Source of the DNA: a bacterium
GTDB taxonomy: Bacteria > Patescibacteriota > Minisyncoccia > Phycocordibacterales > Phycocordibacteraceae
Assembly: GCA_023269085.1 (NCBI GenBank)
Contig: JAHFML010000003.1
Span: forward strand, 1 to 50,862
Direction of reading: 5' to 3'
DNA: 50,862 nucleotides
The notes beneath the pieces are model-generated. The model did no database searches, had not been told where the DNA came from, and saw only the letters and a list, made by a program, of their open reading frames with translations. The number at the start of each line of letters is the position of its first letter. Position 1 is the first letter of the stretch. The position numbers were made by a program, and so were the translations under genes. Of this stretch, positions 13,266-47,550 are shown piece by piece.

Positions 13266-13880
13266 ATGAAAGACCTCATCCGTTCTACAATCAAACTAAC
13301 AGCAGCATCCTCTCTAACCCTCCTAGCTTTCTATGCTATCAATGCTCAAGCACAATCAGCTTGGACTCCTCCCTCGTCAACACCACCAGCAGGCAATGTA
13401 GCAGGACCTCTCACAGTCTCTTCTACAGGTCAGAGCAAAGCAGGCAACCTTATGTTGAATACAGATGGTGCTCTTGCTAATGGTCTTATTGTTGCCGCTG
13501 GCAAGGTTGGTATAGGGACGCTGACTCCTACACAAGCATTGGATGTGAGTGGCAAGATCAGAATGGCAACACAGACCGCCACTGCAGATGCCGCGGATAT
13601 CGTCGCGACGAAGGGGTATGTGGACGGGAAGGTCCCAAATGGAGTTTGCCCAAGCGGTCAGTTTGTGACAGGAATTTCTAATGGAATTATTCAATGTGCT
13701 CCTTCTGGCGGAAACCAAATCGTAGGAGGGTGTGACCAAGCGACTATATTCGGATCGAACTGTTGGGGTGGTGCTGATGGTGGCAGATATGCGAATTGTC
13801 CAACAGGTTCAACTCCTCATATTATGGGCGGTAGTAGTAATGATGGCGCTATATTTACTTATTTCTATTGTACGCGATAG
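13266..13880 (+). CDS. Secreted constant-N/variable-C surface protein, paralog 1 (Cys-rich tip)
   Basis: Signal peptide ...LLAFYAINAQA, constant WTPP..PPAGNVAGPLT...GKVGIG, then ATKGYVD and CPSG/CPTGST modules. Confidence 0.8.
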   Translation: MKDLIRSTIKLTAASSLTLLAFYAINAQAQSAWTPPSSTPPAGNVAGPLTVSSTGQSKAGNLMLNTDGALANGLIVAAGKVGIGTLTPTQALDVSGKIRMATQTATADAADIVATKGYVDGKVPNGVCPSGQFVTGISNGIIQCAPSGGNQIVGGCDQATIFGSNCWGGADGGRYANCPTGSTPHIMGGSSNDGAIFTYFYCTR

Positions 13881-14017
13881 GAAGGGACGTGTAGATAATT
13901 TATACACATCACACCATGAAACCGAACAGCCCGTGATAAAAAATAGTTTACATAGGACTGTCCTATGTTGTTGTAATAATGTCCTCATGAAAAGTCTAAG
14001 CCAGATTTTTATGTCCC

Positions 14018-14080
14018 ACACCAGCATTTATCCATGAAGCACTCCAGTATCGCCCGTGCGGCCTCTTCTGGTTTGAATAA
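14018..14080 (+). repeat. Diverged duplicate of the comM 3' end (right island boundary)
   Basis: Translates [20 protein letters not shown], 18 of 20 aa identical, differences mostly at third codon positions. Confidence 0.85.
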
Positions 14081-14082
14081 AA

Positions 14083-15192
14083 TTATTGCGCGGTGCAGTT
14101 GGTACTCCCGACGACACAGGCACGGAGCGGGTTGGCCGCGCCGCGGACTTCGAAGTGGAGATGCGCGCCGGTCGAGAGTCCTGTCGAGCCGACATAGCCG
14201 ATCACGTCGCCCGAAGAGACGCTCTGCCCCGATGAGACAGCCGTGCGCGTCATATGGCTGTAGAGCGTTTGCGAGCCGTTGTCGTGGGTGATGACGACAT
14301 AGTTGCCGTAGCCGCCGTCCCATGCGCCAGTGCCGCGCGATATGATGACGACACCATCAGCCGCGGCGTGAATCGGTGTGCCGCGCGGCGCCGCGAGATC
14401 AACGGCGTTCCAGCCATGCGTTCCTTGGGTGACGAGCGCACCTGGGATCGGGTCGACATAGTAGCCGGGGAATGAGGCGCCGCCGCCGCCGAGGTATGGC
14501 TCATAGATCTTGCCGGATCTTTTCTTGCTCGATGGCTTCGAGACAGGAGCTTTGGGCGTCACTTCGCCGCCAGGGATGATGATGCTCGTGCCCACCGCAA
14601 GCGCGCCCGCCGTGTCGAGGCCGTTGAACTGCGCAATTTCGCCCGCGTCGGCGTTGTATCTCTTCGCCAGCGATTTGAGCGTGTCGCCCTTCACGACGGT
14701 ATGCTCCGTTCCCGAGACAGGGAGAATAATAAGAGTGTCGCCCACATGAAAATCTTTTGCACTACTCATGTTGTTCGCCCAGATAATAGTGTTTGCGGAA
14801 ACGCCGAACATGTCCGCAATTTCAGAAAGGGTGTCGCCTCGACGCACGACATAGATTGAGATGTGGTCCGATTGCGTCGAGCTCGCGACATCGGCGATGG
14901 TGCCGGCTGGTCCGGTGTGAGCGAGCACGGCATTGTCGCTCGTGGTGAGCGTGTCGCCGATACCCTTGTTCGGGTTCGGGTCGATGTTGGTGGCGGCGGC
15001 GAGCAAGGGTGTTGCCGAACTCGGCATATGTAAAGCGCTCGCCGCATCGGCGTTTGTCGAGAACGGCCAGAATGCGTCTGCCTGGTTGGGTACAGAAATT
15101 GCTGCAACAATGAGCAAAGCAAGTACGGTAGAGAGAGATGGAAGTTTGAAAGTAATGGGAAACGAAGGAAGTCGGCGGGTCAGCAAGTACAA
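14083..15192 (-). CDS. LysM-domain M23-family metallopeptidase
   Basis: Two LysM motifs (YVVRRGDTLSEIA, HTVVKGDTLKSLA) and M23 motifs AVDLAA, GYGNYVVITH, TLYSHM, STGAHLHFEV. Confidence 0.93.
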   Translation of the reverse strand: MYLLTRRLPSFPITFKLPSLSTVLALLIVAAISVPNQADAFWPFSTNADAASALHMPSSATPLLAAATNIDPNPNKGIGDTLTTSDNAVLAHTGPAGTIADVASSTQSDHISIYVVRRGDTLSEIADMFGVSANTIIWANNMSSAKDFHVGDTLIILPVSGTEHTVVKGDTLKSLAKRYNADAGEIAQFNGLDTAGALAVGTSIIIPGGEVTPKAPVSKPSSKKRSGKIYEPYLGGGGASFPGYYVDPIPGALVTQGTHGWNAVDLAAPRGTPIHAAADGVVIISRGTGAWDGGYGNYVVITHDNGSQTLYSHMTRTAVSSGQSVSSGDVIGYVGSTGLSTGAHLHFEVRGAANPLRACVVGSTNCTAQ

Positions 15193-15338
15193 AAGTAGCC
15201 TAAATACGGCGTATATAGGCTACTTCTTGAAATCAGTCATGACAGTCGATACCACCGAGTATAGCCCCGTTAGATTGAGAGTCAACCGGCTCGCGAGATA
15301 GCTGTGGAGAACGCTTTTTGAGGTATATTTCAATAATT

Positions 15339-18338
15339 ATGTATCTCGATGGATTGAATGACGCGCAGAGAGAGGCGGTCCTCGCGAAGGACGGCCCGAT
15401 CTCGGTCCTTGCGGGTGCGGGGAGCGGGAAGACGCGCGTGCTCGCGACGCGGGTGTATCACCTGATCCGCGAGGGCGTACCGGCCGACACTATCCTCGCG
15501 GTCACCTTCACCAACAAGGCGGCACGCGAAATGCGCGAGCGGGTTAGGACACTGCTTGGCAACGATTCGGCCGTCCCCTTCGTCGCGACCTTCCACGGGC
15601 TCGGGCGCGAATTGCTCGAGAAATATGGCTCGGCTATTGGCGTGCCGCGCTTCTTCAGCGTCTATGACCGCGACGACTCGGAGCGAGCGATCGGTGCCGC
15701 GCTCAAGGCGCTCGACGTCTCGACCAAAGAGCTCTCGCCGCGCGCGGTCCTCGGGCGCATCTCGCGCGCCAAGGGCGAGGGGATGCGCGCGAGCCAATTC
15801 GCCGAGAAGTACGGGCGCACGAGCTTCGGCGGTCGAATCGTCGCCGAGGTGTGGGCGCGATACGAGAAGACGCTGAAGGAAGAGAAGGCGCTCGACTTCG
15901 ACGATCTCATCGCGCTCCCGGTGCGCCTGCTCGAAGAGCGCGCCGACGTGCGCGCAGTCGCGCAGTCGCGGTGGCGCTATATTCATATCGATGAGTACCA
16001 AGATACGAACGAGCTGCAAGGGCGTCTCGCGAACATACTTGCCGCGAAGCATCACAATTTATTTGTTGTTGGCGATATCGATCAGTGTCTTATTGCGGGT
16101 ACGCAGATCACCGTACCCGATGGATCAGAACGACCGATAGAGAAGATACGAAAAGGCGACCTGGTGCTCTCTAACTACGGAAGCGGTGATGTGCGACCGG
16201 CGCTGATTTCTCGCGTTTCTTCTCGTCGAGCAACGGGCGAGCTGATACGCATCACGACGAACCGTGGGCGAGAGATAACGAGTACGGAAGATCATATGCA
16301 CTTCGCCGGATATCGGCTCGGCATAACACCGCAACTGTATTTCACGTACCTCATGTTCAAGGATGGAAAGGGGTGGCGACTTGGCGTCTCGCAGACGTAT
16401 ACCAACGGACAGCGTGTTTCGATGGTCGGCTTCCAGCAGAGATGCAATCAAGAGCACGGTGATGCGGTGTGGGTTGTCGGTACGCACGACACGACTCAAG
16501 ATGCGCGCATTCTCGAATACCGCTTATCGCTCCGATATGCCCTGCCGACGCTACCGTTTGTCGCGCGGAAGGGGAGTACGGGCGGATATGTGCATGACCA
16601 AAAGGTGCTCGACAGTATATTTGCTTCGTTTGATACCGAGAAAGGGGCGGGGAAATTATTGAAAGAGTGTGGATTGTCGCGCGAGTATCCGCACCATCGG
16701 GCGCAGGCGACACGGAGCGACCGTCGTAATATCGTTGTAACGATGTGTGGCGAGCATCGAGGCAGGACGCCCATGCATAGGATTTCTCTCATGGGGAGCG
16801 ACGCCGAAGGGAAACGTCTGCTCCGTGCGGCGGGGTTCTCGGTGCGCCCTGCGAAGGCTGGTTCGCAGAGTTGGCGATTCGAGACGGCGAATAAAGACTA
16901 TGCGGCCGTTGTCGATATGATTGAACAACTACAGACGATTTTCCCCAAGGCGCACAGCGTGCGGATGGCGCGGCTGGGCGGGAAGAAGGCGAATCCGAAA
17001 GATGGAAACGCACTCCCCTTCATGCCGGCCGGAAGCGTAGAGAGGGGCATGGTCATGTTCGACCATGAGGGGGTATTCGATGTGGTGAAGAGTGTCGAAC
17101 GAATACCGTCGCAGGGCGTGCGAGTCTATGATCTTGATGTCGAACATACACACAACTTCATTGCGAATGGCATGACAACGCATAATTGCATCTATACCTG
17201 GCGGGGCGCGACTATTGAGAACCTGCTTACATTCGAAAAACAATATCCCGAAGCGCAGACGATTGTCCTCGAGCGTAATTATCGCTCGACCAAAACGCTC
17301 GTCGATGCGGCGAACGCGGTCATCGAGAAGAATAAAAATCGTAAGGAGAAGCGCTCAACGACCGAGCAAGGGAAGGGTGAGCCAATCGTCCTGCATCTCG
17401 CGACGAACGCCGAAGACGAAGCGCACTGGGTAGCGCAGAAGATTCGCGAGCTGATGATAGCCGGGAAGAAACCAGAAGAGATTGCGATCTTGTATCGCAC
17501 CAACTTCCAATCTCGCGCGCTTGAGGAGGGACTCTTGCGCGCGGGTGTGCCCTACAAGCTCCTCGGGACGAAATTCTTCGGTCGCAAAGAGGTGAAGGAC
17601 GCACTCGCGTGGATGCGGCTCGCGATGGACCCTGCGAGAGAACAGGACAAGATGCGCGCGGCGGCTGCGCCGCCGCGCGGCATCGGCGCAGTCACCCTCG
17701 GCAAGCTCGTTGCTGGCCAGCGCGCCGCTCTCCGCGCGAGCGACCTCGCGAAGGTCGAGCTTTTCGAACACATTATTAAAGAGCTCGCGCTCGCCGCCGA
17801 GACGCTCCCGCCCTCGGCATTCGTGAAGCTCGTCATCGAGAGAAGCGGCATGAAGCGGGCGATGCTCGACGAGGGGAGCGAGGAGGACAAAGAGCGATTC
17901 GAGAATGTCGAGGAGCTCGCCTCGGTAGCAGCAAGGCACGATGCTCTCGTTGGTAAAGAGGGCATTGCGCTCTTCCTTGCTGAAGCGGCTTTAGCGAGTG
18001 ATCAAGACGAGCTCGATCAAGGAGAGAAGAAGGGCGTGACGCTCATGACGGTCCATGCGGCCAAGGGGCTCGAGTTCGACACGGTCTTCGTGACGGGCAT
18101 GGAGGAAGGGCTCTTTCCCCACACCGCAATGGGGAACGATACGCATCGCGACGACGAAGAAGAACGGCGCCTCTTCTATGTCGCGATGACGCGCGCGAAG
18201 TCGCGCCTCTTCCTCACCCTCGCGCGCGTGCGCAAAATCTACGGCAGCGACTCGTATGCCGCGCCCTCCTCCTTCCTCGCCGACATCGACTCCTCGCTTC
18301 TCTTGTATGATGAGACTGATGGCTATGACATTTATTAA
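15339..18338 (+). CDS. pcrA: ATP-dependent DNA helicase PcrA/UvrD containing an intein
   Basis: LAGAGSGKT, TFTNKAA, IDEYQD, VGDIDQ//CIYTWRGA, NYRST, TVHAAKGLEF, EERRLFYVAMTRA. Confidence 0.93.
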   Translation: MYLDGLNDAQREAVLAKDGPISVLAGAGSGKTRVLATRVYHLIREGVPADTILAVTFTNKAAREMRERVRTLLGNDSAVPFVATFHGLGRELLEKYGSAIGVPRFFSVYDRDDSERAIGAALKALDVSTKELSPRAVLGRISRAKGEGMRASQFAEKYGRTSFGGRIVAEVWARYEKTLKEEKALDFDDLIALPVRLLEERADVRAVAQSRWRYIHIDEYQDTNELQGRLANILAAKHHNLFVVGDIDQCLIAGTQITVPDGSERPIEKIRKGDLVLSNYGSGDVRPALISRVSSRRATGELIRITTNRGREITSTEDHMHFAGYRLGITPQLYFTYLMFKDGKGWRLGVSQTYTNGQRVSMVGFQQRCNQEHGDAVWVVGTHDTTQDARILEYRLSLRYALPTLPFVARKGSTGGYVHDQKVLDSIFASFDTEKGAGKLLKECGLSREYPHHRAQATRSDRRNIVVTMCGEHRGRTPMHRISLMGSDAEGKRLLRAAGFSVRPAKAGSQSWRFETANKDYAAVVDMIEQLQTIFPKAHSVRMARLGGKKANPKDGNALPFMPAGSVERGMVMFDHEGVFDVVKSVERIPSQGVRVYDLDVEHTHNFIANGMTTHNCIYTWRGATIENLLTFEKQYPEAQTIVLERNYRSTKTLVDAANAVIEKNKNRKEKRSTTEQGKGEPIVLHLATNAEDEAHWVAQKIRELMIAGKKPEEIAILYRTNFQSRALEEGLLRAGVPYKLLGTKFFGRKEVKDALAWMRLAMDPAREQDKMRAAAAPPRGIGAVTLGKLVAGQRAALRASDLAKVELFEHIIKELALAAETLPPSAFVKLVIERSGMKRAMLDEGSEEDKERFENVEELASVAARHDALVGKEGIALFLAEAALASDQDELDQGEKKGVTLMTVHAAKGLEFDTVFVTGMEEGLFPHTAMGNDTHRDDEEERRLFYVAMTRAKSRLFLTLARVRKIYGSDSYAAPSSFLADIDSSLLLYDETDGYDIY
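16086..17186 (+). mobile_element. Intein (367 aa) in helicase motif III
   Basis: Begins CLIAGTQI, has block-B TEDH, ends YDLDVEHTHNFIANGMTTHN followed by Cys; removal restores GDIDQCIYTWRGA. Confidence 0.93.
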
Positions 18339-20983: not shown

Positions 20984-20984
20984 T

Positions 20985-30819: not shown

Positions 30820-31210
30820 GAAAAAGAGTAAAGCATGCGGCCGCCCCAAAGGGGCGGCCGCGTGCTTTCTCATCGCCTATCCCCACCCTCCTCCTTTACC
30901 TCCCCCTCGGGGGGGGGGTACGCTACAGGTATATCCACCGCGCATAACCCACACCCATGAAAGAACTAACTCGTTCAACGCTCGTCACCATCGTCGCCTC
31001 TTCTCTCACCCTCCTCGCCTTCTACGCGATCAACGCACAAGCACAATCAGCCTGGACTCCAGCTCCAGCTAACGCTCCCTCAGGCAACGTGGCAGGCCCC
31101 CTCACCACGGGCGCAACCGGTCAGAGCAAAGCCGGCAACCTTATGCTCAACACCGATGGCACCCTCGCCAACGGTCTCATCGTTGCGAATGGGAATGTGG
31201 GGATTGGGAC
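30796..31210 (+). repeat. 415-bp direct repeat, copy B
   Basis: Matches 29660-30074. Confidence 0.95.
30895..30924 (+). promoter_or_regulatory. Putative promoter with G10 tract (TTTACC-N18-TACGCT)
   Basis: G run 30909-30918. Confidence 0.65.
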
Positions 31211-36514: not shown

Positions 36515-36606
36515 GGAGACGTGGCTGAGTGGTCGAAAGCACCTCACTGCTAACGAGGCAGGGACGTTAAACTCCCTCGTGGGTTCAAATCCCACCGTCT
36601 CCGCCA
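36515..36606 (+). tRNA. tRNA-Ser(GCT)
   Basis: Acceptor GGAGACG/CGTCTCC then G-CCA; D-arm GCTGAGTGGTCGAAAGC; anticodon loop CT-GCT-AA (36549-36551); long variable arm; GGTTCAAATCC T-arm. Confidence 0.95.
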
Positions 36607-38100
36607 AAATTCAAAATCGGAATTGGAAGCCGAAATGGGGTCGCGCCGTAGGCGCGACACAAACGCATTCCCGCCAAAAATTCCTGAATCCAAAAGGTTT
36701 TTCCACGCTCCGCGTGGTTCAAAAAAGACGGTTCGATCCTTAATTTGAAAGTTCGAACCGACTTTTTGAAGTAAACGGATTTTTTCTCCGTTTACTTCCT
36801 CGTTTGCCAATTCCACATTGTATTTCAAAAACTTTTCGGTAAGTTCGAACCGATTATTCGCTTTTTGCTCAAAAGCCGATAATTTCTCTTTGAGAAGCTG
36901 TTTTTGATTAACTAGCGTGCTTTTAGCGCCCCGATATTCCTCTAGCGAAAGTGCGCTCTCTAAATAAGCATTCATCAGCTTCTCAATTTTAGAATCCAAA
37001 AGAGAAATTTCGGCTTTTGTGTTGTCTGCAAAAAGCGTAGACGACTGGATTTCTGATTGCCGATCTTTTGCGTTTTCGGCAATCATCCATTTAGCCCAAT
37101 CGTCTGGCAAAGAAACTTTTTTGATTTCCTTATTGATTTCGGAAGTGATGATTTCCTCGCGAGTATATTTTTGCGAACAAGGATTTTTCCGTTTGGTACA
37201 TCGCAAATAATTATGACCTTTCTGTGTCTCGGTAGTGATGAAGCAACCACACTCTCCGCAACGGAAAAATCCTCTGTACAAAAATGGTTTCAGTCCGCGA
37301 GATTTCGGCTTACTTTTTCGCATCATCACTTCCTGAACGGAATCAAAAAGTTTCTTTGAAATAATCGGTTCGTGCTTTCCCTCAAAAATCTCTCCGTTGT
37401 ACAACATCAATCCTGTATAGATAGGATTTTTGAGAAGTTTTTGATAATTCGACACCGCAAGTTCCTTTCCGCTTTTTCGCTTCAATCCAAGCCCATTAAA
37501 TTTGTCGCGGAGTTCCCGCAAAGTGAAGTTTCCGGTGGAATATGCCTCAAATGTTTTGCGAATAAGTGGAGCAAGTTCGGGGTCTGGCACAATACGCTTG
37601 TTTTTGTTCACATAGCCCAATGGCGACATTTGAGGCCATATACCTTCCTTCACTTTGTTTCTATGTCCACGCTTAATATTCTCCGACAAATTGTCCACAT
37701 AATACTTGGATTGCGAAAAGGCGATTGAGAGCATGAATTTGCCTTGCGGTGTCGGATCAAACCAAAAAGTTGGGAATTTCATTTCAGAAATTACACCAGT
37801 ATCAACGAGGTAGATGATCTTTCCTCCATCTACCGAGTTGCGAGCAAGTCTATCGGGATGCCACGCCAAAATACCAGTGGCTTCACCTTTTTCCATTCGC
37901 TCTATCATTTCATTAAACACGGGACGACCTGGTATTTTGGCGGTCTGCTTCTCGACAAAGACATCAACCACATCAAGCTGTTCTTTCAACGCTAACTCTT
38001 TTAATTCACTTAGTTGGTCAGCAATACTGCGGACTTGTCTGTCTTTGTCATCCGTAGACTTGCGAGTATATATGAAAAACTTTTTGGTTTGATTATTCAT
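36550..38100 (-). CDS. Large serine recombinase (resolvase, recombinase and Zn-ribbon domains), C-terminus read antisense through tRNA-Ser
   Basis: IYTRKSTDD..QVRSI..Q, WHPDRLARN, PLGY, LKNPIYTG, HEPIIS, CGECG...YLRC; start at MNNQTKK. Confidence 0.92.
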   Translation of the reverse strand: MNNQTKKFFIYTRKSTDDKDRQVRSIADQLSELKELALKEQLDVVDVFVEKQTAKIPGRPVFNEMIERMEKGEATGILAWHPDRLARNSVDGGKIIYLVDTGVISEMKFPTFWFDPTPQGKFMLSIAFSQSKYYVDNLSENIKRGHRNKVKEGIWPQMSPLGYVNKNKRIVPDPELAPLIRKTFEAYSTGNFTLRELRDKFNGLGLKRKSGKELAVSNYQKLLKNPIYTGLMLYNGEIFEGKHEPIISKKLFDSVQEVMMRKSKPKSRGLKPFLYRGFFRCGECGCFITTETQKGHNYLRCTKRKNPCSQKYTREEIITSEINKEIKKVSLPDDWAKWMIAENAKDRQSEIQSSTLFADNTKAEISLLDSKIEKLMNAYLESALSLEEYRGAKSTLVNQKQLLKEKLSAFEQKANNRFELTEKFLKYNVELANEEVNGEKIRLLQKVGSNFQIKDRTVFFEPRGAWKNLLDSGIFGGNAFVSRLRRDPISASNSDFEFWRRRWDLNPRGSLTSLPR

Positions 38101-38121
38101 AGAATTGTATTGGCAAACGAG

Positions 38122-38242
38122 TGAACCACGCGGAGCGTGGAAAAACCTTTTGGATTCAGGAATTTTTGGCGGGAATGCGTTTGTGTCGCGCCTACGGCGC
38201 GACCCCATTTCGGCTTCCAATTCCGATTTTGAATTTTGGCGG
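38122..38242. repeat. 121-bp inverted copy of 36601-36721 (left att arm / integrase 3' region)
   Basis: Exact reverse complement by inspection. Confidence 0.93.
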
Positions 38243-38441
38243 TGTGTATTGGACAAAGTTCGAATGTATTTCGGACAAAATCCGCAGGATTTTGACTAAT
38301 AATCTTTGCGCCTCGCACGCTCCCTTCGGTCGCAATCCCAAAACCAAAAATTTCCTTACTTTTCCTTCTTCGGCGGGGGGTGTGGGGGGAGCCGGCAAAA
38401 AATGGAAAGGAAAATTTTTGGTTTTGGTTCCGACGCTTCAT
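38236..38441. repeat. 206-bp inverted copy of 44106-44311 (right att arm)
   Basis: Reverse complement with one mismatch seen (KFSF versus KFSL in the ORF track); overlaps the previous repeat at the CCGCCAA core. Confidence 0.93.
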
Positions 38442-38533
38442 AATCCAATTATTCACACTTGTATTATAACTTATCATTGAGTCAAAACACAAGAGAATGC
38501 TATAATATCCGTGTTGATAAGTTTTCATACAAT

Positions 38534-38743
38534 ATGGCAAAATCCACAGCACAAAAATTTGGCGAAAATATGAAAAAAATTCGCCTTGAAAAAAGCATGT
38601 CGCAAGGCGATATTTGCCGAGAGTTAGGTTTAGATAGAGCGTATATAAGCAATGTTGAGAACGGCAAACAAAACCTTACAATCAGTACAATGGAAAAGGT
38701 CGCCAAAGCGTTGGGAGTTAGCATAGATCAACTTTTAAAATAG
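38534..38743 (+). CDS. XRE-family HTH regulator (RM controller C-protein-like)
   Basis: FGENMKKIRLEKSMSQ...DRAYISNVENGKQNLTI..MEKVAKAL. Confidence 0.9.
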   Translation: MAKSTAQKFGENMKKIRLEKSMSQGDICRELGLDRAYISNVENGKQNLTISTMEKVAKALGVSIDQLLK

Positions 38744-38745
38744 TT

Positions 38746-40419
38746 ATGAGCAAGCTTAAAGACATGCCAAATGTAGACCGCCCGCGAGAAAAATTTCTTG
38801 CGAAAGGTGCCGATGCTTTAACCAAAAGCGAACTTTTGGCGATTTTACTGGGAAGTGGAATAAAAGGCACAAATGTTAAAGAACTTTCGCAAAAAATTCT
38901 GCGAAAATTTGGGAATGGCTTTTTGCATGCAACCGTTGACGAGTTAGTACAAATTCCAGGAATCGGAAAGGCGAAAGCGTTGCAAATTGTTTCTGCGCTC
39001 GCCTTGGCTCGCAGAATACAGGAGGAGCAAAACAGTCCCGATAATCTTATTTTGTCCGCCAAAGACGCATTGTCATTGGTTTCGGACTTGAAAGACGCAA
39101 AAAGAGAAAACCTCGTCTGTTTGTACTTGAATGCACGAAATGCGTTACTTAAAAAAGAAATTGTTTCAGTCGGCACATTGGACAAGAGTTTGATACATCC
39201 GCGAGAAATTTTTGCACCAGGTCTTGAAGCACACGCAGCAGGGGTCATTCTTGTTCACAATCATCCGTCTGGGGATCCAAGCCCGAGCGAACAAGACAAA
39301 CAAGTTGCAAAAAGAATTATTGATGCAGGACAGTTAATGGGTATAAATGTTATAGATTTTCTTATCATCGCAAAAAACGGCTCCCATAGCGTTTTGGGAG
39401 AATTACAAAATACGGAACTAACTAATACGGAATATGTTGCAGAAGGTATTCAATCTTCACTTTTTGATTTAATGGTAGACGCAAACCAAGCATATTTTTA
39501 CGGCGTAAATAATAAGGTTCCAGAAAACAAAGGCAAAAAGGACGCTTTGAAGTTTATAGATCTTTTTGCTGGAATCGGTGGCTTTCATGTCGCCTTTCAT
39601 AATGCTGGCAGTGAGTGTGTTTTTGTCTCCGAATGGGACGAACCTGCACAACAAACCTATAAACATAACTTTTTCAAGCTATCGCCAGAGGTATTTCGCT
39701 CGGGAAATTTTGTCGGCGATATAACGAAAATCAAACCGAATGATATACCCGATTTTGATATTTTGACTGGAGGTTTTCCTTGTCAGCCATTCTCGCAAGC
39801 TGGCTTTAAAAAAGGATTTAACGAAACTCGTGGAACTTTATTTTTCGATATTGTTAAAATTTTAAAAGAAAAAAAGCCCCGTGCTTTTTTTCTGGAAAAT
39901 GTCCGCGGTTTATATAATCATGATAATGGTAAGACGTTTGAAACCATAAAAAGAGTCATAACGGAAGAACTGGGATATTCTTTCTTCCAAAAAATTGTAA
40001 AAGCTTCTGATTTTGGCTTACCGCAACACAGACCCCGCTTGTTTATGGTTGGATTCAGAGATAAATCCATTAACTTCAAATTTCCCGAACCTGTCAAAGA
40101 ACTCAAATATACAATGTCGGATATATTCGGCGGAAAATGCGATAAAGAGGTCGGCTTCACATTGCGTGTTGGTGGACGAGGGAGCAAGATAACTGACAGA
40201 AGAAATTGGGACGCATATCGAGTAAACGGAAAAATCGTACAACTTGGACCAAAGGAAGGGTTAAAAATGCAAGGGTTCCCAGATTGGTTTGAATTTCCGC
40301 AAGGCATTTCCAGCGTCCAGTCCATGAAGCAATTGGGTAATTCCGTCGCTATTCCCGCAATACAGGCTGTTGCTGAAAAAATAATTGAAACATTGAATGA
40401 ATATGATCAAAGAAAATAA
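38746..40419 (+). CDS. RadC (HhH plus JAB) fused to a C5 DNA cytosine methyltransferase
   Basis: RPREKF..KGADAL...ELLAILL, HPREIF, HNHPSGD; then DLFAGIGGF, GGFPCQPFS, ENVRGL, PQHRPR, KQLGNSV. Confidence 0.92.
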   Translation: MSKLKDMPNVDRPREKFLAKGADALTKSELLAILLGSGIKGTNVKELSQKILRKFGNGFLHATVDELVQIPGIGKAKALQIVSALALARRIQEEQNSPDNLILSAKDALSLVSDLKDAKRENLVCLYLNARNALLKKEIVSVGTLDKSLIHPREIFAPGLEAHAAGVILVHNHPSGDPSPSEQDKQVAKRIIDAGQLMGINVIDFLIIAKNGSHSVLGELQNTELTNTEYVAEGIQSSLFDLMVDANQAYFYGVNNKVPENKGKKDALKFIDLFAGIGGFHVAFHNAGSECVFVSEWDEPAQQTYKHNFFKLSPEVFRSGNFVGDITKIKPNDIPDFDILTGGFPCQPFSQAGFKKGFNETRGTLFFDIVKILKEKKPRAFFLENVRGLYNHDNGKTFETIKRVITEELGYSFFQKIVKASDFGLPQHRPRLFMVGFRDKSINFKFPEPVKELKYTMSDIFGGKCDKEVGFTLRVGGRGSKITDRRNWDAYRVNGKIVQLGPKEGLKMQGFPDWFEFPQGISSVQSMKQLGNSVAIPAIQAVAEKIIETLNEYDQRK

Positions 40420-41491
40420 CAAAGGAGAATGGTCGGAATTTTACGCTTTCCTTAAAATTCTTGAGGATAGAAAACTTTTTGCAGCGGACAAAAATCTTGA
40501 AATAATAGATGGAAAGTTTTTCGTATTTCACAAAATATTCAGAGACGAGAAAGACGAACCCGTTAAAATTTATGATCTTTCACAATCGGACACGCAAGTA
40601 ATAATCACCGACGAAGCAGGAAGAACCATTAAAGAGTTTGACTCCTCCGTTTTGAAAGAAAAGACATTGAAAATTTTTGAACGAATCAGAGATGAAAAAA
40701 GTCGATCATTCACAATTCCAGAAGCGTGCGAGCTCATGGAGGAATTGCTTTGCACAAAAGTAAAAGCAAGTAGTAGTGAAAAAGCTGATCTTGTTGCGAT
40801 TATCTATGATCGGATTTCTAAAACAGCACCGATGCTCGGATTCTCCATAAAATCTATGATCGGAGGAGCATCCACATTGCTTAATCCTGGTAAAACTACA
40901 AACTTTGTTTTTGAAATAAAAGGTTTTACAGGCAATGTGGATGAAGTGAATGCCATAGAAACAAATGCTCAAATTCGTGATCGTGTTAAAAAAATATCGG
41001 AACAAAACGGAGTTTTTGATTTTGTAGGGGTGTCCAATGAACAGTTTTCCTCGAACATGAAAATGATTGATACGGCATTGCCAGAGTTTATCGCATCAAT
41101 GCTTTTGGATTTTTTCTCAAACAGTCGGAAAACAGTTGCGGATCTGGCAGGTGCTCTTTCGGAAGATGCAAAAATAACCACAAAGTACGGACTATCTCTC
41201 ACAAACTACGAATATAAAATCAAAAACTTTTTGGACGCGGTCGCGCTTGGTATGGTGCCAAGCAAACCCTGGGACGGTTTTGCTAAAGCACATGGTGGGT
41301 ATATTGTCGTAAAAGAAAATGGCGATGTGGTTTGTTATCACTTATACAATCGTGATGAATTTCGAGCATATTTATACGAAAACACGAAGTTTGACGCGGC
41401 AAGCACAACTCGTTATGAATACGGCAAGCTATACGAGAAAAATGGAAAGCTGTTTTTTAACCTCAACCTGCAAATTAGATTTTTGAAATAG
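40397..41491 (+). CDS. Type II restriction endonuclease, HpaII-like family
   Basis: NKGEWSE N-terminus, KAD...GFSIKS..G...TLLN, GMVPSKPWDG...GGYIVVK, LNLQIRF; overlaps the MTase stop. Confidence 0.8.
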   Translation: MNMIKENNKGEWSEFYAFLKILEDRKLFAADKNLEIIDGKFFVFHKIFRDEKDEPVKIYDLSQSDTQVIITDEAGRTIKEFDSSVLKEKTLKIFERIRDEKSRSFTIPEACELMEELLCTKVKASSSEKADLVAIIYDRISKTAPMLGFSIKSMIGGASTLLNPGKTTNFVFEIKGFTGNVDEVNAIETNAQIRDRVKKISEQNGVFDFVGVSNEQFSSNMKMIDTALPEFIASMLLDFFSNSRKTVADLAGALSEDAKITTKYGLSLTNYEYKIKNFLDAVALGMVPSKPWDGFAKAHGGYIVVKENGDVVCYHLYNRDEFRAYLYENTKFDAASTTRYEYGKLYEKNGKLFFNLNLQIRFLK

Positions 41492-41507
41492 AGAGAACAT
41501 TTAAACT

Positions 41508-42926
41508 ATGAAAAATAAATTTATAAAAAAGGATATTTCGATAAAAGGCTTGTCTCTTTGGGATGAAAATGCACGTTTCCCAGATAAATATTTTAGTAAG
41601 ACAGAGAAGGAGCTTATTGGTTATTTTGTATCCAAAAAGGATTTTAAGATAAATGAATTTTCTGAAGAAGTTGTAAAGGAGTTTGATTTGCCGCAACTAG
41701 AAAAATTGGTTGTATATGAGTTTAATGGCAAAAAAATAGTTTTGGAGGGCAACCGTCGTCTTGCGGTTTATAAACTTTTAAATGATCCAAAATTAACTGA
41801 CGATACGAAACTGCAAGGCAAGCTTACTGGTTTAAGATCGAAGATAAAAATTGACGATAATTTTAAGCTAGAGTGTTTGATTTCTAAAGACAAGGAGCAG
41901 GGTCTGCGGTATATAAACAGGAAACACTTGCGAGGCAATAACGAAGTTTCTTGGGGTGATAATGAGAGAGCTCATCATAATGCACGTGGAGGGAATGCAA
42001 ATCAAAAAGAACTCCTGAAAGTTGCAATTACTAAAGTCATCAAAGATCTTGAACTTCCAGAACAATTGAAGGAACAAGTATTGGGACATGGTTTTGTAAC
42101 TACCCTTTGGAGGTTAGTTGAACAAAAGCCAGCGTGGTCTGCCTTTGGATTTTCACTTGATAAAAGCGGAGAACTAAAAATCACAGACAAAGATTTTAAG
42201 GACAAGCTAAAAGTTATTATTTTTGATGTTCTGCAAAAGGGTAAGTATAACGGAAAGCTATTTTCGCGTTTAAATGTAAAAGACATCGAAGGTTATTTGG
42301 GAGGAATTACAAAAGAAGATTATAAAAGAGTTTCTGATGACATAAAGAAACAAACCAAGACAGATCTTTTTGGCAAGGAATCAACTATCATTGCTTCATC
42401 AGGAAACAATGGAAACCGAAGTAATCCAAAATCATCACTTCGTGATTATTTAATTCCAAAAACGTGTGTATTTCAAATTCACGAAACAAAGATCAATAAT
42501 ATTTACTGCGAACTTAAAAATGACCTTTTGATTGATGACTCGAAAAAGGCTGTGCCAAATGCCGTCGGGGTATTATTTAGGGTTTTCTTAGAAATATCCT
42601 TGGATCACTATGCAAAAATGAATAGTCATGGATTTAAAAAGACAGATACAATTAATCAAAAAATTTCTTGGGTCGTCAAAAGTTTAGAGGGCAAGAAATA
42701 TGATAAAAAGAAGTTTAACAATATAAACAAAGTTGGTTCTGCAACAGGCACAAAAAGTTATTTATCAATAGAAAATTTCCATGAATATGTTCATTCTGTA
42801 ACAACACAGCCAACATCGAGTGAATTGAAGGGAAAATGGGACAACCTGCAAGGATTTTTTGAAATCCTATGGGGAGATTTGAATAAAAAAGCAAAATCTA
42901 AAAAACAATATGCAAAAAAGAAATAG
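41508..42926 (+). CDS. ParB/Srx-like N-terminal plus HEPN-like C-terminal protein
   Basis: ENARF...VLEGNRRLAVYKLL (ParB-like); NAVGVLFRVFLE...FHEYVH (HEPN-like). Confidence 0.62.
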   Translation: MKNKFIKKDISIKGLSLWDENARFPDKYFSKTEKELIGYFVSKKDFKINEFSEEVVKEFDLPQLEKLVVYEFNGKKIVLEGNRRLAVYKLLNDPKLTDDTKLQGKLTGLRSKIKIDDNFKLECLISKDKEQGLRYINRKHLRGNNEVSWGDNERAHHNARGGNANQKELLKVAITKVIKDLELPEQLKEQVLGHGFVTTLWRLVEQKPAWSAFGFSLDKSGELKITDKDFKDKLKVIIFDVLQKGKYNGKLFSRLNVKDIEGYLGGITKEDYKRVSDDIKKQTKTDLFGKESTIIASSGNNGNRSNPKSSLRDYLIPKTCVFQIHETKINNIYCELKNDLLIDDSKKAVPNAVGVLFRVFLEISLDHYAKMNSHGFKKTDTINQKISWVVKSLEGKKYDKKKFNNINKVGSATGTKSYLSIENFHEYVHSVTTQPTSSELKGKWDNLQGFFEILWGDLNKKAKSKKQYAKKK

Positions 42927-43776
42927 AAAAAAAATATCGGGTTTCTCTAGCCCCTTGCGTTATCCAGGCGGGAAAACTCGACTTGCCAATAAACTACTTG
43001 AGGCAATGGAGAAAAACTTTGACCAAAAAGAAAAAGTGGTTTTGGTGGAGCCATATGCTGGTGGAGCGGGGGCTTCACTTGCTCTGCTTTTTGCCAAAAA
43101 AGTTGAAAGAATTGTTATCAATGATCTTGATAAGGCTATTTTTACTTTCTGGAAAATAGCTGTGTCTGATACTGACTATTTAATAAATAAAATAAAACGA
43201 ACAGAAGTTACTATTGAGGAATGGAGAAGGCAAAAAGCAATATACATTTCAACAAAAGACGAACGAAAACTTGCATTTGCGACTCTGTTTTTAAATAGAA
43301 CAAACCGTTCTGGGATTATGAGAGGTGGACCAATAGGCGGATTTGATCAATCTGGAACATGGAAAGTGAATGCTCGATTTACTAAAAAAACAATCATTGA
43401 TCGTCTAGAAAAAGTAAAAGAATTCCGTAATAAAATTGAGGTAAGTAATCTGGACGGAGTAGCATTGTTAAAAAGATTGGAAAAACGCAATAGTGAGAAT
43501 CAATATTTTATATTTCTTGACCCGCCATATTTTCAAAAAGGACAATCTTTATACCTAAACCATTACAACAATGAGGATCATGAAAATCTGTCAGAATTCT
43601 TGAGAAAATCATCTTTCAAAAAATGGGTTATGACTTATGATGATGTGCCGTATATTAAAAACTTGTATGCAACAATGCGTACTAAGGGGTTTGCAATTCA
43701 GCATAATGCATACGAATCCAAAATAGGCAGAGAGGTTATGATTTTTCCAAAAGGGTTTACCCCTGTGAATATTTAA
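42910..43776 (+). CDS. Dam/D12-class DNA adenine methyltransferase
   Basis: SPLRYPGGK, EPYAGGAG, INDLD, FLNRTNRSG, FLDPPY, WVMTYD. Confidence 0.92.
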   Translation: MQKRNRKKISGFSSPLRYPGGKTRLANKLLEAMEKNFDQKEKVVLVEPYAGGAGASLALLFAKKVERIVINDLDKAIFTFWKIAVSDTDYLINKIKRTEVTIEEWRRQKAIYISTKDERKLAFATLFLNRTNRSGIMRGGPIGGFDQSGTWKVNARFTKKTIIDRLEKVKEFRNKIEVSNLDGVALLKRLEKRNSENQYFIFLDPPYFQKGQSLYLNHYNNEDHENLSEFLRKSSFKKWVMTYDDVPYIKNLYATMRTKGFAIQHNAYESKIGREVMIFPKGFTPVNI

Positions 43777-44318
43777 GGGAGCCGTCCGCGTTAGCGGATG
43801 GGCTTTGTGCGCGCACTGGGAGGGTGGGGCAAGCACATATAAAATTGTTTGTGCCTCACACAATCCGCCTTTCAGAGTTACCACAGACTCAAACGAAGTC
43901 ACAGAGCGAACACGAAGCAACGCCGAGCAGGCATCGTGAGCGAATGCGAACGGCCTATGCGAGGTGGTGCGAAGTGTGAGCGGACTCTCGAATTACCACA
44001 AAACGCGGATATGGGAGCGCCTCGCACCGACGCGAATGACGGAAGAAAGGACGGACAAAATACTGCCACAATGCTAAAATATAAATACAAGTCCTTTCTG
44101 GAGGAATGAAGCGTCGGAACCAAAACCAAAAATTTTCCCTTCCATTTTTTGCCGGCTCCCCCCACACCCCCCGCCGAAGAAGGAAAAGTAAGGAAATTTT
44201 TGGTTTTGGGATTGCGACCGAAGGGAGCGTGCGAGGCGCAAAGATTATTAGTCAAAATCCTGCGGATTTTGTCCGAAATACATTCGAACTTTGTCCAATA
44301 CACACCGCCAATATATTT

Positions 44319-44981
44319 CTAGTGCGCCAAAGCGAGAGGAATAATCTGTGTCGCGCCCGCGGCGCGGAGCGCGTCGATGGCGGCTTGGAGCGTCGCGCCG
44401 GTGGTGAGGACGTCGTCGATGACGAAGTAGGTGCGGGCGGGGTCGAACGGATGCGCGGCGTCTTCTGCAACGCGAAAGGCGCCGCGCATGTTCTCTTCGC
44501 GTTCTCTCCGCGGGAGCGACACCTGCGAGGCGGTCTCGCGCGTGCGGACGAGCAGGGAAGGCTCAAGGGCGAATCCCTGAACATCGTGCAACGCCCCCCG
44601 TATTACTTCTTCGACCTGATTGAAGCCGCGCTCACGCCGTCGCGCCGCGCCGAGCGGTATCGGCACGATCGAGACAAGGTTCGACCTTAGCCCAGAATTC
44701 TCAAGGTCGAACCTTGTCTCGTCGAACTCGGCCTCGCGAAGATACTCGGCGAGCGCGAGCGCGAGGAGCGCCTGTGCGCGCGCCGAGCCGTGATACTTCG
44801 CTTCGTGTATCGCCGAACGCACGAGTGGCTCCTGGAAGGGGAGAAGAACGACCGTGCCCGGCCGCGTGCAGGGCGCGAGGCGCGGTGCAATGAGAGAGAG
44901 GAAGTCGTCATCAGAAATGGCACGAAGTGATTCTTCATCACTGCGCGGGGGGAAGAGCATGTCCATGAGGCGTCGCAACAT
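44319..44981 (-). CDS. comF: ComF-family phosphoribosyltransferase-like competence protein
   Basis: IHEAKY, IVPIPL...RERGFNQ, IDDVLTTGATL. Confidence 0.9.
   Translation of the reverse strand: MLRRLMDMLFPPRSDEESLRAISDDDFLSLIAPRLAPCTRPGTVVLLPFQEPLVRSAIHEAKYHGSARAQALLALALAEYLREAEFDETRFDLENSGLRSNLVSIVPIPLGAARRRERGFNQVEEVIRGALHDVQGFALEPSLLVRTRETASQVSLPRREREENMRGAFRVAEDAAHPFDPARTYFVIDDVLTTGATLQAAIDALRAAGATQIIPLALAH
44670..44721. repeat. 19-bp perfect inverted repeat inside the comF coding sequence
   Basis: CGAGACAAGGTTCGACCTT-N14-AAGGTCGAACCTTGTCTCG. Confidence 0.9.
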
Positions 44982-44995: not shown

Positions 44996-46078
44996 ATGTC
45001 GTTCTTCGATTCGCTATTTACGAAAAAAGAAGGAAGCGTGCTCGGCGTCGACATCGGGTCGTCGTCGCTCAAGGTCGTCCAGCTGCGCCGCGAGAAAGGG
45101 CAGGCCGTGCTTGAGACCTATGGCGAGCTCGCGCTCGGGCCGTATGCGGGCGTCCAAGTCGGACAGGCGACGAATCTCTCGGCAGAGCAGATCGCCGAGA
45201 CGCTCAAAGATCTCCTGCGCGAGGCGAAGGTGACGACGACCAACTGCGGCGTCTCGATTCCCTTCGCGCGGTCGCTCCTCTCTCTCGTGCGTCTGCCCTA
45301 TCGCAAGAGCCAGCAGGAACAGCAGACGATTATCGAGCTCGAAGCGCGCAAATATATACCCGTGCCAGTGAGCGAGGTCCAGCTCGACTGGTTCGTCGTG
45401 CCGAAGATGGAGCTCGGCGGGAGGGAAGATGAGAGAGAAAAGGATACCGTCGAGGTGCTGATCGTCGCGGTCCACAATGACGAGCTCGCGCTACTGCAGA
45501 GCGTCATGGCGGGCGCCAGTCTCGCGGCGACCTTCTACGAGATCGAGATCTTCAGCACTATTCGCGCGGTCGTCGATGAACCGGTCAAGCCGGTGATGAT
45601 CCTCGACCTCGGCGCCGCCTCGACGAAGGTCTACATCGTCGAACACGGCGTCGTCGCGCTCTCGCACTCGATCGGCACCGGCAGTCAAGACATCACGCGC
45701 GCGATTGCCGTCTCCTCGGACGTCTCACTCGCTCGCGCCGAAGCGCTCAAGAAGGAGCGCGGGCTCCTACGCGACAGCGTCTCGAGCAAGAATTCAGAAG
45801 TCATATTCTCGAACATCTTTTCCGAAGCGCGCCGTGCCATGGTGCAATATGAGACGCTTCATAAGCGGGCGGTCAGCTCTATCATGCTTACCGGCGGCGG
45901 CGGCGTGACCAAGGAGTTGAGCGCGTATGCGAAGCAGACATTCTCGATCGATGTGCGCGTAGCGAACCCGTTCGCGAAGACGGCCGCACCGGCCTTCATG
46001 CGCCCAGTGCTCGAAGAGATAGGGCCAGAGTTCGCCGTCGCCGTCGGCCTCGCCCTCCGCAAGCTTGAGGAAGAATGA
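44996..46078 (+). CDS. pilM: Type IV pilus assembly protein PilM
   Basis: LGVDIGSSSLKVVQL, EARKYIP...VQLDW, ILDLGAAST, LTGGG, NPF, FAVAVGLALR. Confidence 0.92.
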   Translation: MSFFDSLFTKKEGSVLGVDIGSSSLKVVQLRREKGQAVLETYGELALGPYAGVQVGQATNLSAEQIAETLKDLLREAKVTTTNCGVSIPFARSLLSLVRLPYRKSQQEQQTIIELEARKYIPVPVSEVQLDWFVVPKMELGGREDEREKDTVEVLIVAVHNDELALLQSVMAGASLAATFYEIEIFSTIRAVVDEPVKPVMILDLGAASTKVYIVEHGVVALSHSIGTGSQDITRAIAVSSDVSLARAEALKKERGLLRDSVSSKNSEVIFSNIFSEARRAMVQYETLHKRAVSSIMLTGGGGVTKELSAYAKQTFSIDVRVANPFAKTAAPAFMRPVLEEIGPEFAVAVGLALRKLEEE

Positions 46079-46104
46079 TAGCCGCAACATGCTAGAATGA
46101 CGCT

Positions 46105-46566
46105 ATGAAGAAGGAGATGGAAAAAACAACGAAACAAGAACCGACTATTTCGGATGTTATGAGAGTCGTGGGCGGTTTGACGGGGGAAGTAGGCAGTCTC
46201 ACGGGAAGAGTAGATAGTCTCACCGGCACCGTAGAGAATCTCACCGGGAAGGTAGACAGTCTTGCCGAATCTTTACAAGATCTGACCGAAGCTGTGCAGA
46301 CTGGCTTCGCTAGACACGAGGAGATACTTGTTGGACATGGAGAAGTGCTTGCTAAGCATGACCAACTTCTGAAAGCCTTGGTCGAAGGGCAGAACAACCT
46401 CACCGAACGAGTCGGCGATATTGATCGACGGCTCATCGCTACGCAGAATCGCGTTGAAGATATCGCGGACATGTTCGAGAGCACGACCGATGTTGTCGAC
46501 GAAAGCCGCGACCAGATCTTCGGTCATGAAGTGCGCATCACGCGGCTTGAAGGAGTAGCAGTATAA
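46105..46566 (+). CDS. Heptad-repeat coiled-coil hypothetical protein
   Basis: LTGxVxS heptads (21-nt DNA periodicity); ends HEVRITRLE; paralog of 48403-48822. Confidence 0.72.
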   Translation: MKKEMEKTTKQEPTISDVMRVVGGLTGEVGSLTGRVDSLTGTVENLTGKVDSLAESLQDLTEAVQTGFARHEEILVGHGEVLAKHDQLLKALVEGQNNLTERVGDIDRRLIATQNRVEDIADMFESTTDVVDESRDQIFGHEVRITRLEGVAV

Positions 46567-46585
46567 GTTATACACAATGATTTCC

Positions 46586-46612
46586 TTTACTCTACCCTCG
46601 GGGGGGTACGCT
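46586..46612 (+). promoter_or_regulatory. Putative promoter with G7 tract (TTTACT-N15-TACGCT)
   Basis: G run 46600-46606. Confidence 0.62.
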
Positions 46613-46653
46613 AGAGGAGTATCTCTTACTTCACTTCTAGCCACATTCTCGCT

Positions 46654-47550
46654 ATGCGCACGCTCCTCACCTCAACCCTCAAGATGTTCGTCGCCTCTTC
46701 TCTCACCCTCCTCGCCTTCTACGCGATCAACGCTTCTGCACAATCAGCCTGGACTCCAGCTCCAGCTAACGCTCCCTCAGGCAACGTGGCAGGCCCCCTC
46801 ACCACGGGCGCAACCGGTCAGAGCAAAGCCGGCAATCTCATGCTCAACACCGACGGCACCCTCGCCAACGGCCTCATCGTCGCGAATGGGAATGTGGGGA
46901 TTGGGGTGTTGAACCCGGATTATCTACTTGATATTAACGGTACCTTTGCGGCTAAGTATAATCTGGACATGAAATCAGGGATTTCTCAGATCGCATGGAA
47001 CAGAGACTCTCGTACCGGATCTATTTATGATTCAGCTCACCACGCATGGCAGCTTGGGCCAACGTCGGTGTCCAATGATGGGTTCAGCATAAAACACTTC
47101 AGCCCATCTGGTACTTACTCGGGAGGAGTCATATTTTCAGTAGATGACAACGTCGGTGTCGGGACACAAACACCGAACGTCTCGAAGGGGGCTGGCGGGT
47201 ATGTCGACGCCAAAGACGTCTATCTCCGTGACGCCGGGAAGTGGGCGAGTCAGGTTGGGGGAGGGAGTGGGAGTATCGTAGCAGGATGCACATCAAAAAG
47301 TCCGACGGGGATAGAGTCAACTTGGATAGATCCTAGTATTTATAATTTTTACAATTGTTTTGGAGGCGCATCTGGGAAGGTGAAGTCAAATGGTGGATGG
47401 GGGGGTGCTCCTCTTGTGACAGCGTCTATGACGTGTCCTACGGGTTCAACAGTTCAAGCGACAGGTCTCTTCCCTATAAGTTATCAAGCAGATGGTTATT
47501 CGAATCCTAGCAGCGGAGCTCTAACGGCGTTTCTCTGTCTGAAGAGTTAA
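46654..47550 (+). CDS. Secreted constant-N/variable-C surface protein, paralog 4
   Basis: 46688-46905 identical to 29855-30072; 47206-47250 identical to 31251-31295; Cys-rich tip like paralog 1. Confidence 0.82.
   Translation: MRTLLTSTLKMFVASSLTLLAFYAINASAQSAWTPAPANAPSGNVAGPLTTGATGQSKAGNLMLNTDGTLANGLIVANGNVGIGVLNPDYLLDINGTFAAKYNLDMKSGISQIAWNRDSRTGSIYDSAHHAWQLGPTSVSNDGFSIKHFSPSGTYSGGVIFSVDDNVGVGTQTPNVSKGAGGYVDAKDVYLRDAGKWASQVGGGSGSIVAGCTSKSPTGIESTWIDPSIYNFYNCFGGASGKVKSNGGWGGAPLVTASMTCPTGSTVQATGLFPISYQADGYSNPSSGALTAFLCLKS

Follow-up and report, generated by a model that had tools for sequence, protein, structure and literature searches.

The window analyzed here (50,862 nt, the first 50.9 kb of contig C9) belongs to a metagenome-assembled genome (MAG) of a groundwater Patescibacterium and contains four of seven paralogous genes that, on balance, we consider likely to encode a modular family of tail-fibre-like, surface-binding fibres whose genes exchange DNA with one another and are switched by upstream poly-G tracts. 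The proteins are probably secreted and probably assemble as homotrimeric fibres. The genome is a draft of 710,721 bp in 14 contigs with a completeness score of 100%, and its named relatives are Patescibacteria MAGs; the window stretch is present in two public runs, both of them groundwater metagenomes from one study.

A whole-genome search recovered seven complete paralogs, all in direct orientation, with four inside the window (p1 to p4) and three outside (p5 to p7), together with one further weak match inside a 2604-aa open reading frame (ORF); no partial, silent, or promoterless copies of the family were found in the genome. An initial annotation, made from the letters of the window, had described the four copies therein; the three additional paralogs, the junction block, the poly-G tracts, and the conservation of the p1 N-module at the protein level only (all described below) go beyond it. 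The members of the family are:

p1, coding sequence 13266-13880, + strand: 204 aa; signal-peptide-like leader, N-module, short Cys linker, Cys-rich tip type A.
p2, coding sequence 29821-30546, + strand: 241 aa; N-module, then a middle beta domain with a G.VGIGT motif on either side, then a small knob with two Cys.
p3, coding sequence 30957-31646, + strand: 229 aa; N-module, junction (31189-31309), phage-type beta-sandwich tip (31290-31643).
p4, coding sequence 46654-47550, + strand: 298 aa; chimeric N-module (46688-46905, the same as p2), middle domain, junction (47144-47264), Cys-rich tip type A (47263-47547).
p5, C9:93322, outside the window: 304 aa.
p6, C5:116568, outside the window: 287 aa.
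p7, C5:33541, outside the window: 279 aa.

The proteins p1 to p4 are colinear and ungapped to approximately residue 84 and diverge after G(N/K)VGIG, which bears out the common N-terminus that the initial annotation had reported for these four ORFs. All seven paralogs begin with a leader composed of M(K/R)..., a hydrophobic core, and then AINA(S/Q)AQS(AWTP), which is signal-peptide-like as judged by eye; the leader end (AINA(S/Q)AQSAWTP) looks like a signal-peptidase-I site, and no prepilin-type leader was seen by eye in any paralog. The leader is followed in all seven by an N-module of ~55 aa (AWTP...GNVAGPL...GQSKAGNLMLNTDG.LANGLIVA.G.VGIG). A second constant block, termed the junction (NVGIGT..PN.SKG..GY(L/V)DAKDVYLRDAGKWAS.VGG), stands directly before the tip in p3 to p7 and is absent from p1 and p2. 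In p4, p5, p6, and p7 a beta-rich middle domain separates the N-module from the junction; p3 has no middle domain, and its junction comes directly after the N-module. At least five kinds of tip occur across the seven paralogs: a Cys-rich tip common to p1, p4, and p5 that is deeply diverged (p4 vs. p5, BLASTP E = 3e-6, 27/76; p1 vs. p4, E = 0.001, 14/38), a beta-sandwich in p3, and a unique tip in each of p2, p6, and p7. The Cys-rich pattern previously noted in p1 and p4 is therefore a weak but real similarity; AQAQ, GTLTP, and AACCTTATG, likewise noted earlier as common to p3 and p1, are present in both, and the last of these, a 9-mer, is also found in p6. The full module order would comprise a 5' cassette (palindrome and poly-G element), signal peptide and N-module, an optional middle domain, the junction, and the tip.

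At the DNA level the family is a patchwork, based on BLASTN of the seven loci. The p2 and p4 genes are identical over 218/218 nt (29855-30072 = 46688-46905; +35 to +252), and p4 and p7 are identical over 209/209 nt (-53 to +155), past which p7 departs and p4 stays identical to p2. Since p4 matches first p7 and then p2 at 100%, at least two exchange events are needed for p4, which is a two-way chimera. The p2 and p3 loci are 96.6% identical over 415 nt (-160 to +254, including 160 nt of flank) and contain a 300-nt repeat at 97%, and p2 is 97.8% identical to p6 over 272 nt and 91.6% identical to p5 over 393 nt. The junction blocks pair otherwise than the N-blocks: p5 with p7 (95.8%), p4 with p6 (96.4%), and p3 with p6 (90.9%). 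Both the 218-bp identity and the common 5' flank of p2 and p3 had been pointed out in the initial annotation, which proposed DNA exchange at constant blocks; block-wise identity and synonymous sites now support such exchange.

Synonymous divergence (dS) of the N-block is 0-0.19 among p2 to p6, and for p1 against all others dS is saturated with nonsynonymous divergence (dN) of only 0.12-0.17; p1 is an old copy in which the protein has been conserved but the codons have not. For p4 vs. p5, the two constant blocks have a dS of 0.05-0.11, with saturation in the middle and tip, and the same codon is used at identical residues at 97/105 constant vs. 18/47 variable positions (p = 4e-12). Three other pairs show a similar contrast, and none is evident in p1/p4 (19/56 vs. 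19/46) or in p1/p5. The same-codon blocks correspond in position to protein modules that other lineages also conserve. The 5' cassette with N-module and the junction of p2 to p7 have been kept near-identical at the DNA level by recent exchange between paralogs, and the middle and tip modules are anciently diverged. RecA is present in the genome, and the exchange would be RecA-dependent gene conversion, with the conserved blocks acting as homology tracts by which promoters, stalks, and tips could be re-assorted over evolutionary time.

The second line of evidence is a conserved 5' element of the form CCTTTACC-N8-G(n)-TAC(G/T)CTA.AGG. The relevant features of the window are:

13195-13265, + strand: p1 5' element; CCTTTACC, 8 nt, G11 (13214-13224), C, TACTCT, leader.
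29694-29732, no strand: perfect 39-nt palindrome, terminator-like, after fusA; starts the duplicated 5' cassette, with a copy at 30830-30868.
29754-29820, + strand: p2 5' element; G10 (29773-29782).
30890-30956, + strand: p3 5' element; G10 (30909-30918).
46581-46653, + strand: p4 5' element; short G7 (46600-46606); 100% identical to p7 from the tract onward.

Poly-G tracts lie 39-48 nt 5' of the ATG in six of the seven copies (p1 G11, p2 G10, p3 G10, p4 G7, p5 G13, p7 G11). The genome has seven G/C runs of at least 10 nt in total, five of which precede family paralogs, and the other two are located just 5' of two reverse-transcriptase genes of diversity-generating retroelements (DGRs) on the same contig. 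Under a model of independent and identically distributed bases, G/C runs of 7-9 nt are depleted genome-wide (6 observed vs. 142 expected), whereas runs of at least 10 nt are not (7 observed vs. 3.3 expected), and the chance that five of these seven would fall in the 60-nt upstream windows of the paralogs is ~5e-17; the association between long poly-G tracts and the 5' ends of the family is non-random. Three of the six runs of 7-9 nt are in or beside the family as well: a G8 run (31302-31309) inside the p3 coding sequence, in a Gly linker right after the junction, where a slip of +/-1 would remove the tip; a G7 run (47399-47405) inside the p4 tip coding sequence; and the G7 upstream of p4. Tract length differs between identically flanked copies (p4 G7 vs. 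p7 G11; p3 G10 vs. p5 G13). MutS (MutS_V) was not found in this genome, despite its completeness score, and the control was positive in 11 of 14 genomes.

The most likely reading of the element, albeit a weak one, has TTTACC as a -35-like hexamer and TAC(G/T)CT as a -10-like hexamer with the tract in between, which would give spacers of 15 nt (p4), 18 nt (p2, p3), 19 nt (p7), 20 nt (p1), and 21 nt (p5). TAC(G/T)CT matches the genome-enriched -10 hexamer TATACT (26 observed vs. 2.4 expected) at four of six positions, including A2 and T6, and the 40-nt stretch that leads from the upstream terminator palindrome to the tract is rich in C, with no good -10-like hexamer by eye. The poly-G in this promoter zone would change length by slipped-strand mispairing in a genome in which MutS was not found, and each change in tract length would switch the transcription of that copy independently of the others. 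A structured RNA leader was considered as well: no known RNA was identified at the 5' element using Rfam, and the fold z-scores of the four 5' regions (0.22, -0.11, -0.71, -2.51) led us to drop this candidate for p1 to p3, with p4 left aside from the rejection. An exact-pattern scan of metagenome contigs for the right flank of the tract gave no matches. Genome-wide, 27 of 59 cases have a -10-like hexamer beginning 11-16 nt ahead of the predicted start codon, a spacing that points to frequent leaderless mRNAs in this genome.

Evidence for fibre-like proteins comes from remote homology and structure prediction. Pfam and NCBIfam gave no match for p1 to p4, and the S74 C-terminal chaperone/protease domain was likewise not found in these four. 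Residues 62-178 of p5 match PDB 8ojn_C (E = 1.8e-7), which is Bd3182 632-922, part of a Bdellovibrio mosaic adhesive trimer (MAT) fibre (PMC10769870). Four of the seven paralogs match PHROG tail-fibre, spike, or tail families, and no PHROG match was obtained for the other three (P0004, P0007, P0008):

P0003 (p3): phrog_11355, tail fibre, 1.7e-10.
P0002 (p2): tail fibre, 8e-8.
P0006: phrog_4013 (function unknown), 2.6e-14; tail spike, 4.4e-7.
P0001 (p1): tail protein, 4.7e-5.

An exhaustive search with p3 residues 88-229 (junction and tip) returned 1190 proteins at E <= 0.001, in which the p3 tip domain occurs alone, C-terminally, or in up to nine tandem copies per protein, and one of which bears a phage tail collar domain; a word-based search with the p3 tip found nothing outside this genome. 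The model of the p3 tip (pLDDT 81.7, 30-sequence alignment) has 47 matches at E <= 0.001 among the predicted viral structures of BFVD, including several proteins annotated as tail fibre or tail spike, and the Atlas points the same way; among PDB folds the model has no match at E <= 0.001. The p4 tip has no meaningful look-alike in Atlas (best score 0.80), and a single-sequence AF2 model of P0006 (pLDDT 33) was not used. The MAT-chain, PHROG, and BFVD matches together support the likeness to tail fibres that the initial annotation had suggested.

Structure prediction also favors a trimeric fibre, a form that the initial annotation had named beside a pilus tip. Three copies of p4 (P0004) residues 30-298 gave an ipSAE of 0.91 vs. 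0.00 for the best of three controls; among proteins of known structure, 21 of 30 same-chain pairs and 0 of 23 single chains attained the ipSAE mark, a calibration that used two copies and so holds only roughly for the p4 trimer. At least 80% of contacts agree between the trimer runs, with a partner pLDDT of at least 66. The predicted interface comprises residues 45-203 (stalk and junction), with the tip outside, and p4 is accordingly predicted to form a homotrimer.

MAT is a fibre superfamily of Bdellovibrio bacteriovorus with a signal peptide, a conserved beta-rich N-domain of ~130 aa, an intertwined trimeric stalk, and independently folding tips (PMC10769870). The Patescibacterium family resembles MAT in being multi-copy with a signal-peptide-like leader, a conserved N-terminal part, and swappable tips (the bearer of MAT also lives on other bacteria), in the homology of the p5 middle domain to Bd3182 632-922, and, by prediction, in the trimeric stalk interface with the tip outside and a range of tip types. 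It differs from MAT in size (204-304 aa vs. the roughly 630-1,150 residues implied by the MAT constructs) and in its short N-module of ~55 aa, with only C-terminal parts of MAT present in PDB; with no S74 domain in p1 to p4, it differs from the S74 branch of MAT and would at most be NS74-like. DNA-level homogenization and promoter poly-G are not mentioned for MAT in the available text (PMC10769870). We do not regard the family as an established member of MAT: the tips and, by prediction, the stalk agree, and no S74 domain was found in p1 to p4.

In 11 of the 36 same-genus genomes searched, the N-module stands at the front of proteins whose C-termini are unrelated, and it was also identified at 52 loci in named Patescibacteria MAGs, often at many per genome (seven in one bin, six in another). 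The junction, nearly unchanged in sequence, also precedes unrelated tips in proteins from other lineages that have different N-termini; at L091:2863-3651 and L092:40-960 (GC 47% and 42%, respectively) it reads GNVGIGTTSPNS.KG..GYVDAKDVYLRD...WASEGG, again with different N-termini and unrelated tips. Given this reuse across lineages, the constant blocks are functional protein modules and not merely conversion scars, and the junction looks like an adaptor in wide use, for which there is neither a family model nor a PDB relative. A possible resemblance of the junction to the T4 fibritin foldon was dropped after neither the p4 segment nor a seven-sequence profile matched PDB at E <= 10. A protein scan of metagenome contigs returned four distant loci only. 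P0005, a metagenome protein from another lineage with the architecture of p4, displays the constant stalk and variable tip that had been proposed for the family: identity with p4 is 59/72 (82%) in the N-module, 68/83 (82%) in the middle domain, and 31/36 (86%) in the junction, vs. 29/95 (31%) in the tip. The leader of P0005 is like those of p5 and p2 and unlike that of p4, a pattern that would fit a 5'-end swap in this genome.

Several observations weigh against a family of exchanging, poly-G-switched fibres. The signal peptide was assigned by eye and not with a predictor, and the p4 trimer may have passed because similar fibre trimers have already been solved. The p6 gene lacks the 5' poly-G element, and scanning with a generic sigma-70 model yields no promoter where the tract lies, so that the -35/-10 assignment is our own reading only. 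A comparable tract is present at 0 of 16 homologue loci in related genomes (two of these loci being internal matches) and at 1 of 52 loci in other Patescibacteria, the latter a C7 at a start that had been called wrongly; this marks the tract as young or lineage-specific. P0005 retains the module order of p4, and shuffling of whole architectures is therefore not fast. The blocks used for the same-codon counts were originally picked by nucleotide similarity; they contain few informative sites, and the variable parts do not lend themselves to alignment. Unitigs break at the 209-218-nt identical blocks, such that the linkage of locus to tip rests on the assembler, and the population data, which consist of Logan contigs of two runs from one study, speak neither for nor against alternative tips or tract lengths.

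Some of these points would suit an ordinary paralogous surface family shaped by recent duplication and purifying selection, with no ongoing exchange and with the poly-G as a fixed feature of the promoter or untranslated region; the protein-level conservation of the N-module and junction across many Patescibacteria and other lineages, the lack of variant forms in the assembled contigs of the two runs, and the retained architecture of P0005 are all compatible with it. We nevertheless judge it unlikely. Selection on the protein cannot yield synonymous identity confined to blocks, nor the two different 100% partners of p4; tract length varies between identically flanked copies, and G/C runs of 7-9 nt are strongly depleted genome-wide while runs of at least 10 nt persist at two gene families only.

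Very unlikely, in our assessment, is a mosaic created by the assembler switching paths inside repeats longer than its k-mer, with false chimeras such as p4 as the outcome, even though the genome is a 14-contig metagenome-assembled draft, the identical blocks exceed common k-mer sizes, and Logan unitigs end at the block edges. The other pairs show graded identity of 91-98% with private substitutions, which is not a product of collapse, and a weaker patchwork of the same kind was found among the paralogs of other, independent MAGs (e.g., 93.7% over 190 nt, 94.8% over 193 nt). Moreover, each run has a single contig of 1647 nt that covers the unique upstream flank of p4 with its G7, and the two show no differences. 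Two apparent variants among the contigs are accounted for by other members of the family: a "+GGG" at 30908 by the p5 locus placed on the look-alike p3, and a joint 30912>46600 by the p7 locus placed likewise; a further joint, 30074>47173 (side 30, one contig), would fit a paralog with the junction directly after the N-module.

The PHROG and BFVD similarities raise the question of whether the genes are remnants of prophage or tailocin tail fibres and not cellular surface proteins, which we regard as barely plausible: the N-terminus is signal-peptide-like in all copies, the N-module belongs to cellular Patescibacteria (52 loci), and none of 21 flanking or nearby ORFs scanned matches a phage structural family. 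The copies are dispersed, either singly or two together, and have housekeeping genes as neighbors (fusA, rplB, pilM, and a Fic/M23 peptidase pair). Neighboring competence and pilus genes had been proposed for two copies. The ComM-type gene (10399-12114, with a Fic gene between it and p1) and pilM (44996-46078, near p4) stand, but the comF candidate (44319-44981, - strand) has only a sub-threshold Pribosyltran match (25.8 bits vs. a cut-off of 26.3). One more ORF separates pilM from p4:

46105-46566, + strand: coiled-coil ORF, 153 aa, between pilM and p4; no family assignment.

A paralog of this ORF is encoded just downstream of p6 (C5:117370-117834; 83/151 identical, 55%), and it may be a fibre-associated gene.

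Least credible of all is that the tips are varied by the DGRs of this genome, or that the proteins are tip adhesins or minor pilins of a type IV pilus. Two DGR cassettes with reverse transcriptase and Avd are indeed on the same contig, their reverse-transcriptase genes also following poly-G, and p4 does come after pilM; however, the template repeat/variable repeat (TR/VR) pairs map to other genes, no repeat connects the cassettes to a paralog, and the tips differ by whole domains and not by adenine-directed point changes. The link to pili is weak because only p4, one of the seven copies, adjoins a pilus gene and no paralog has a prepilin-type leader. The DGRs themselves are at C9:71337-73271 (L095) and C9:107462-109404 (L096), each with an RVT_1 gene and a divergent bAvd-like ORF. 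Their TR/VR-like pairs are 71337-71445/71725-71833 (20 mismatches in 109 nt) and 107462-107572/107886-107996 (13 mismatches in 111 nt), along with a remote copy at C2:178690-178801, and the poly-G runs directly 5' of the reverse-transcriptase genes are G12 (72224-72235) and G10 (108379-108388).

The closest known system in protein design is Bdellovibrio MAT, and the closest in genetic logic are the Neisseria opa genes and promoter-homopolymer switches. The opa genes are dispersed, complete adhesin genes, each switched by a simple repeat, in which inter-locus recombination produces mosaic variable regions. The opa repeat is a pentamer within the leader-peptide coding region and Opa proteins are beta-barrels, whereas in the Patescibacterium the homopolymer is upstream of the ATG and the proteins are predicted fibres. 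Promoter homopolymer switches are known for meningococcal porA/opc, Bordetella fim, and Mycoplasma hyorhinis vlp, for which it has been shown experimentally, in pathogens, that tract length sets transcription; in the vlp genes, moreover, divergent external regions follow a 5' end and signal peptide that are conserved. Unlike these, the promoter proposed here was read from sequence alone, in an uncultured groundwater bacterium. A long homopolymer at the promoter or start of a surface gene, enriched beyond chance, is the mark of a contingency locus, and is found at six of the seven paralogs.

In phage tail fibres, the N-terminal attachment part and the junction motifs are conserved and the receptor-binding tips can be exchanged, and the family has tip and stalk modules in common with phage families; it differs in being cellular and signal-peptide-bearing, and in forming a repertoire of paralogs inside one genome. 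Shufflons of the R64 type and silent-cassette systems (pilE/pilS, vlsE) place alternative C-terminal ends on a constant N-terminal part, and the initial annotation had likened the family to a dispersed shufflon. This analogy is not supported: there is no adjacent recombinase, inverted segment, or promoterless cassette, the only tyrosine recombinase of the genome (4415-4945, - strand) is ~8 kb before p1, no inverted repeats other than the terminator palindrome involve the family, and the copies are complete and direct. A silent-cassette mechanism was rejected as well, with no silent or partial copies found in the genome.

Returning to the switched and exchanging fibre family, its proteins would bind surface structures of a host cell or of another substrate. 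Host recognition by ultrasmall episymbionts is largely unknown according to published abstracts on the subject, which treat type IV pili only. In the literature searched, we found no description of phase variation in Patescibacteria, the one paper with both terms being on archaeal methylation, nor of a tail-fibre-like adhesin family in this group. The locus offers candidates for host recognition in the form of small, expressible tail-fibre-like trimers with defined tips, and a testable genetic logic of independent on/off switching and module exchange that is known so far from pathogens, combined with fibres known from Bdellovibrio; the N-module and junction motif could act as search handles for such repertoires across the phylum. 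We more tentatively raise the possibility, which we do not favor, of a wider system of combinatorial, stochastic host recognition, in which poly-G slippage, in a genome without MutS, would switch the fibre genes and also the two DGR reverse transcriptases, each independently, and RecA-dependent conversion would re-assort the modules. If true, no contingency-locus system would have been described earlier from the Candidate Phyla Radiation, and host choice by episymbionts could be approached directly.

The window has other features of note. A low-GC island at 38233-44314 (36-40% GC vs. ~57%) has at its ends inverted repeats of 209 nt with 99% complementarity (38233-38441, 44106-44314). Its genes are those of a RadC-C5 methylase fusion, an HpaII-type endonuclease, and a D12 methylase, together with an unknown ORF of 472 aa; the island resembles a mobile restriction-modification cassette, and a first guess that the low-GC region at 38-44 kb was a pilus operon was refuted by this restriction-modification gene content. 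At 36515-38256, perfect 121-nt inverted repeats (36601-36721, 38122-38242) surround most of a 568-aa minus-strand ORF, with a tRNA (36515-36603) adjoining. Summed contig depth over 35.5-38.6 kb is in places ~2-4x that of the flanks in both runs, which suggests that the element there is multi-copy or shared. A UvrD/PcrA-type helicase at 15318-18338 is split by an intein (Intein_splicing and Hint_2 between the helicase halves), and two near-identical 34-nt GC-rich hairpins with A/T tails (410-443 and 2221-2254), terminator-like in appearance, are located 1.8 kb apart.

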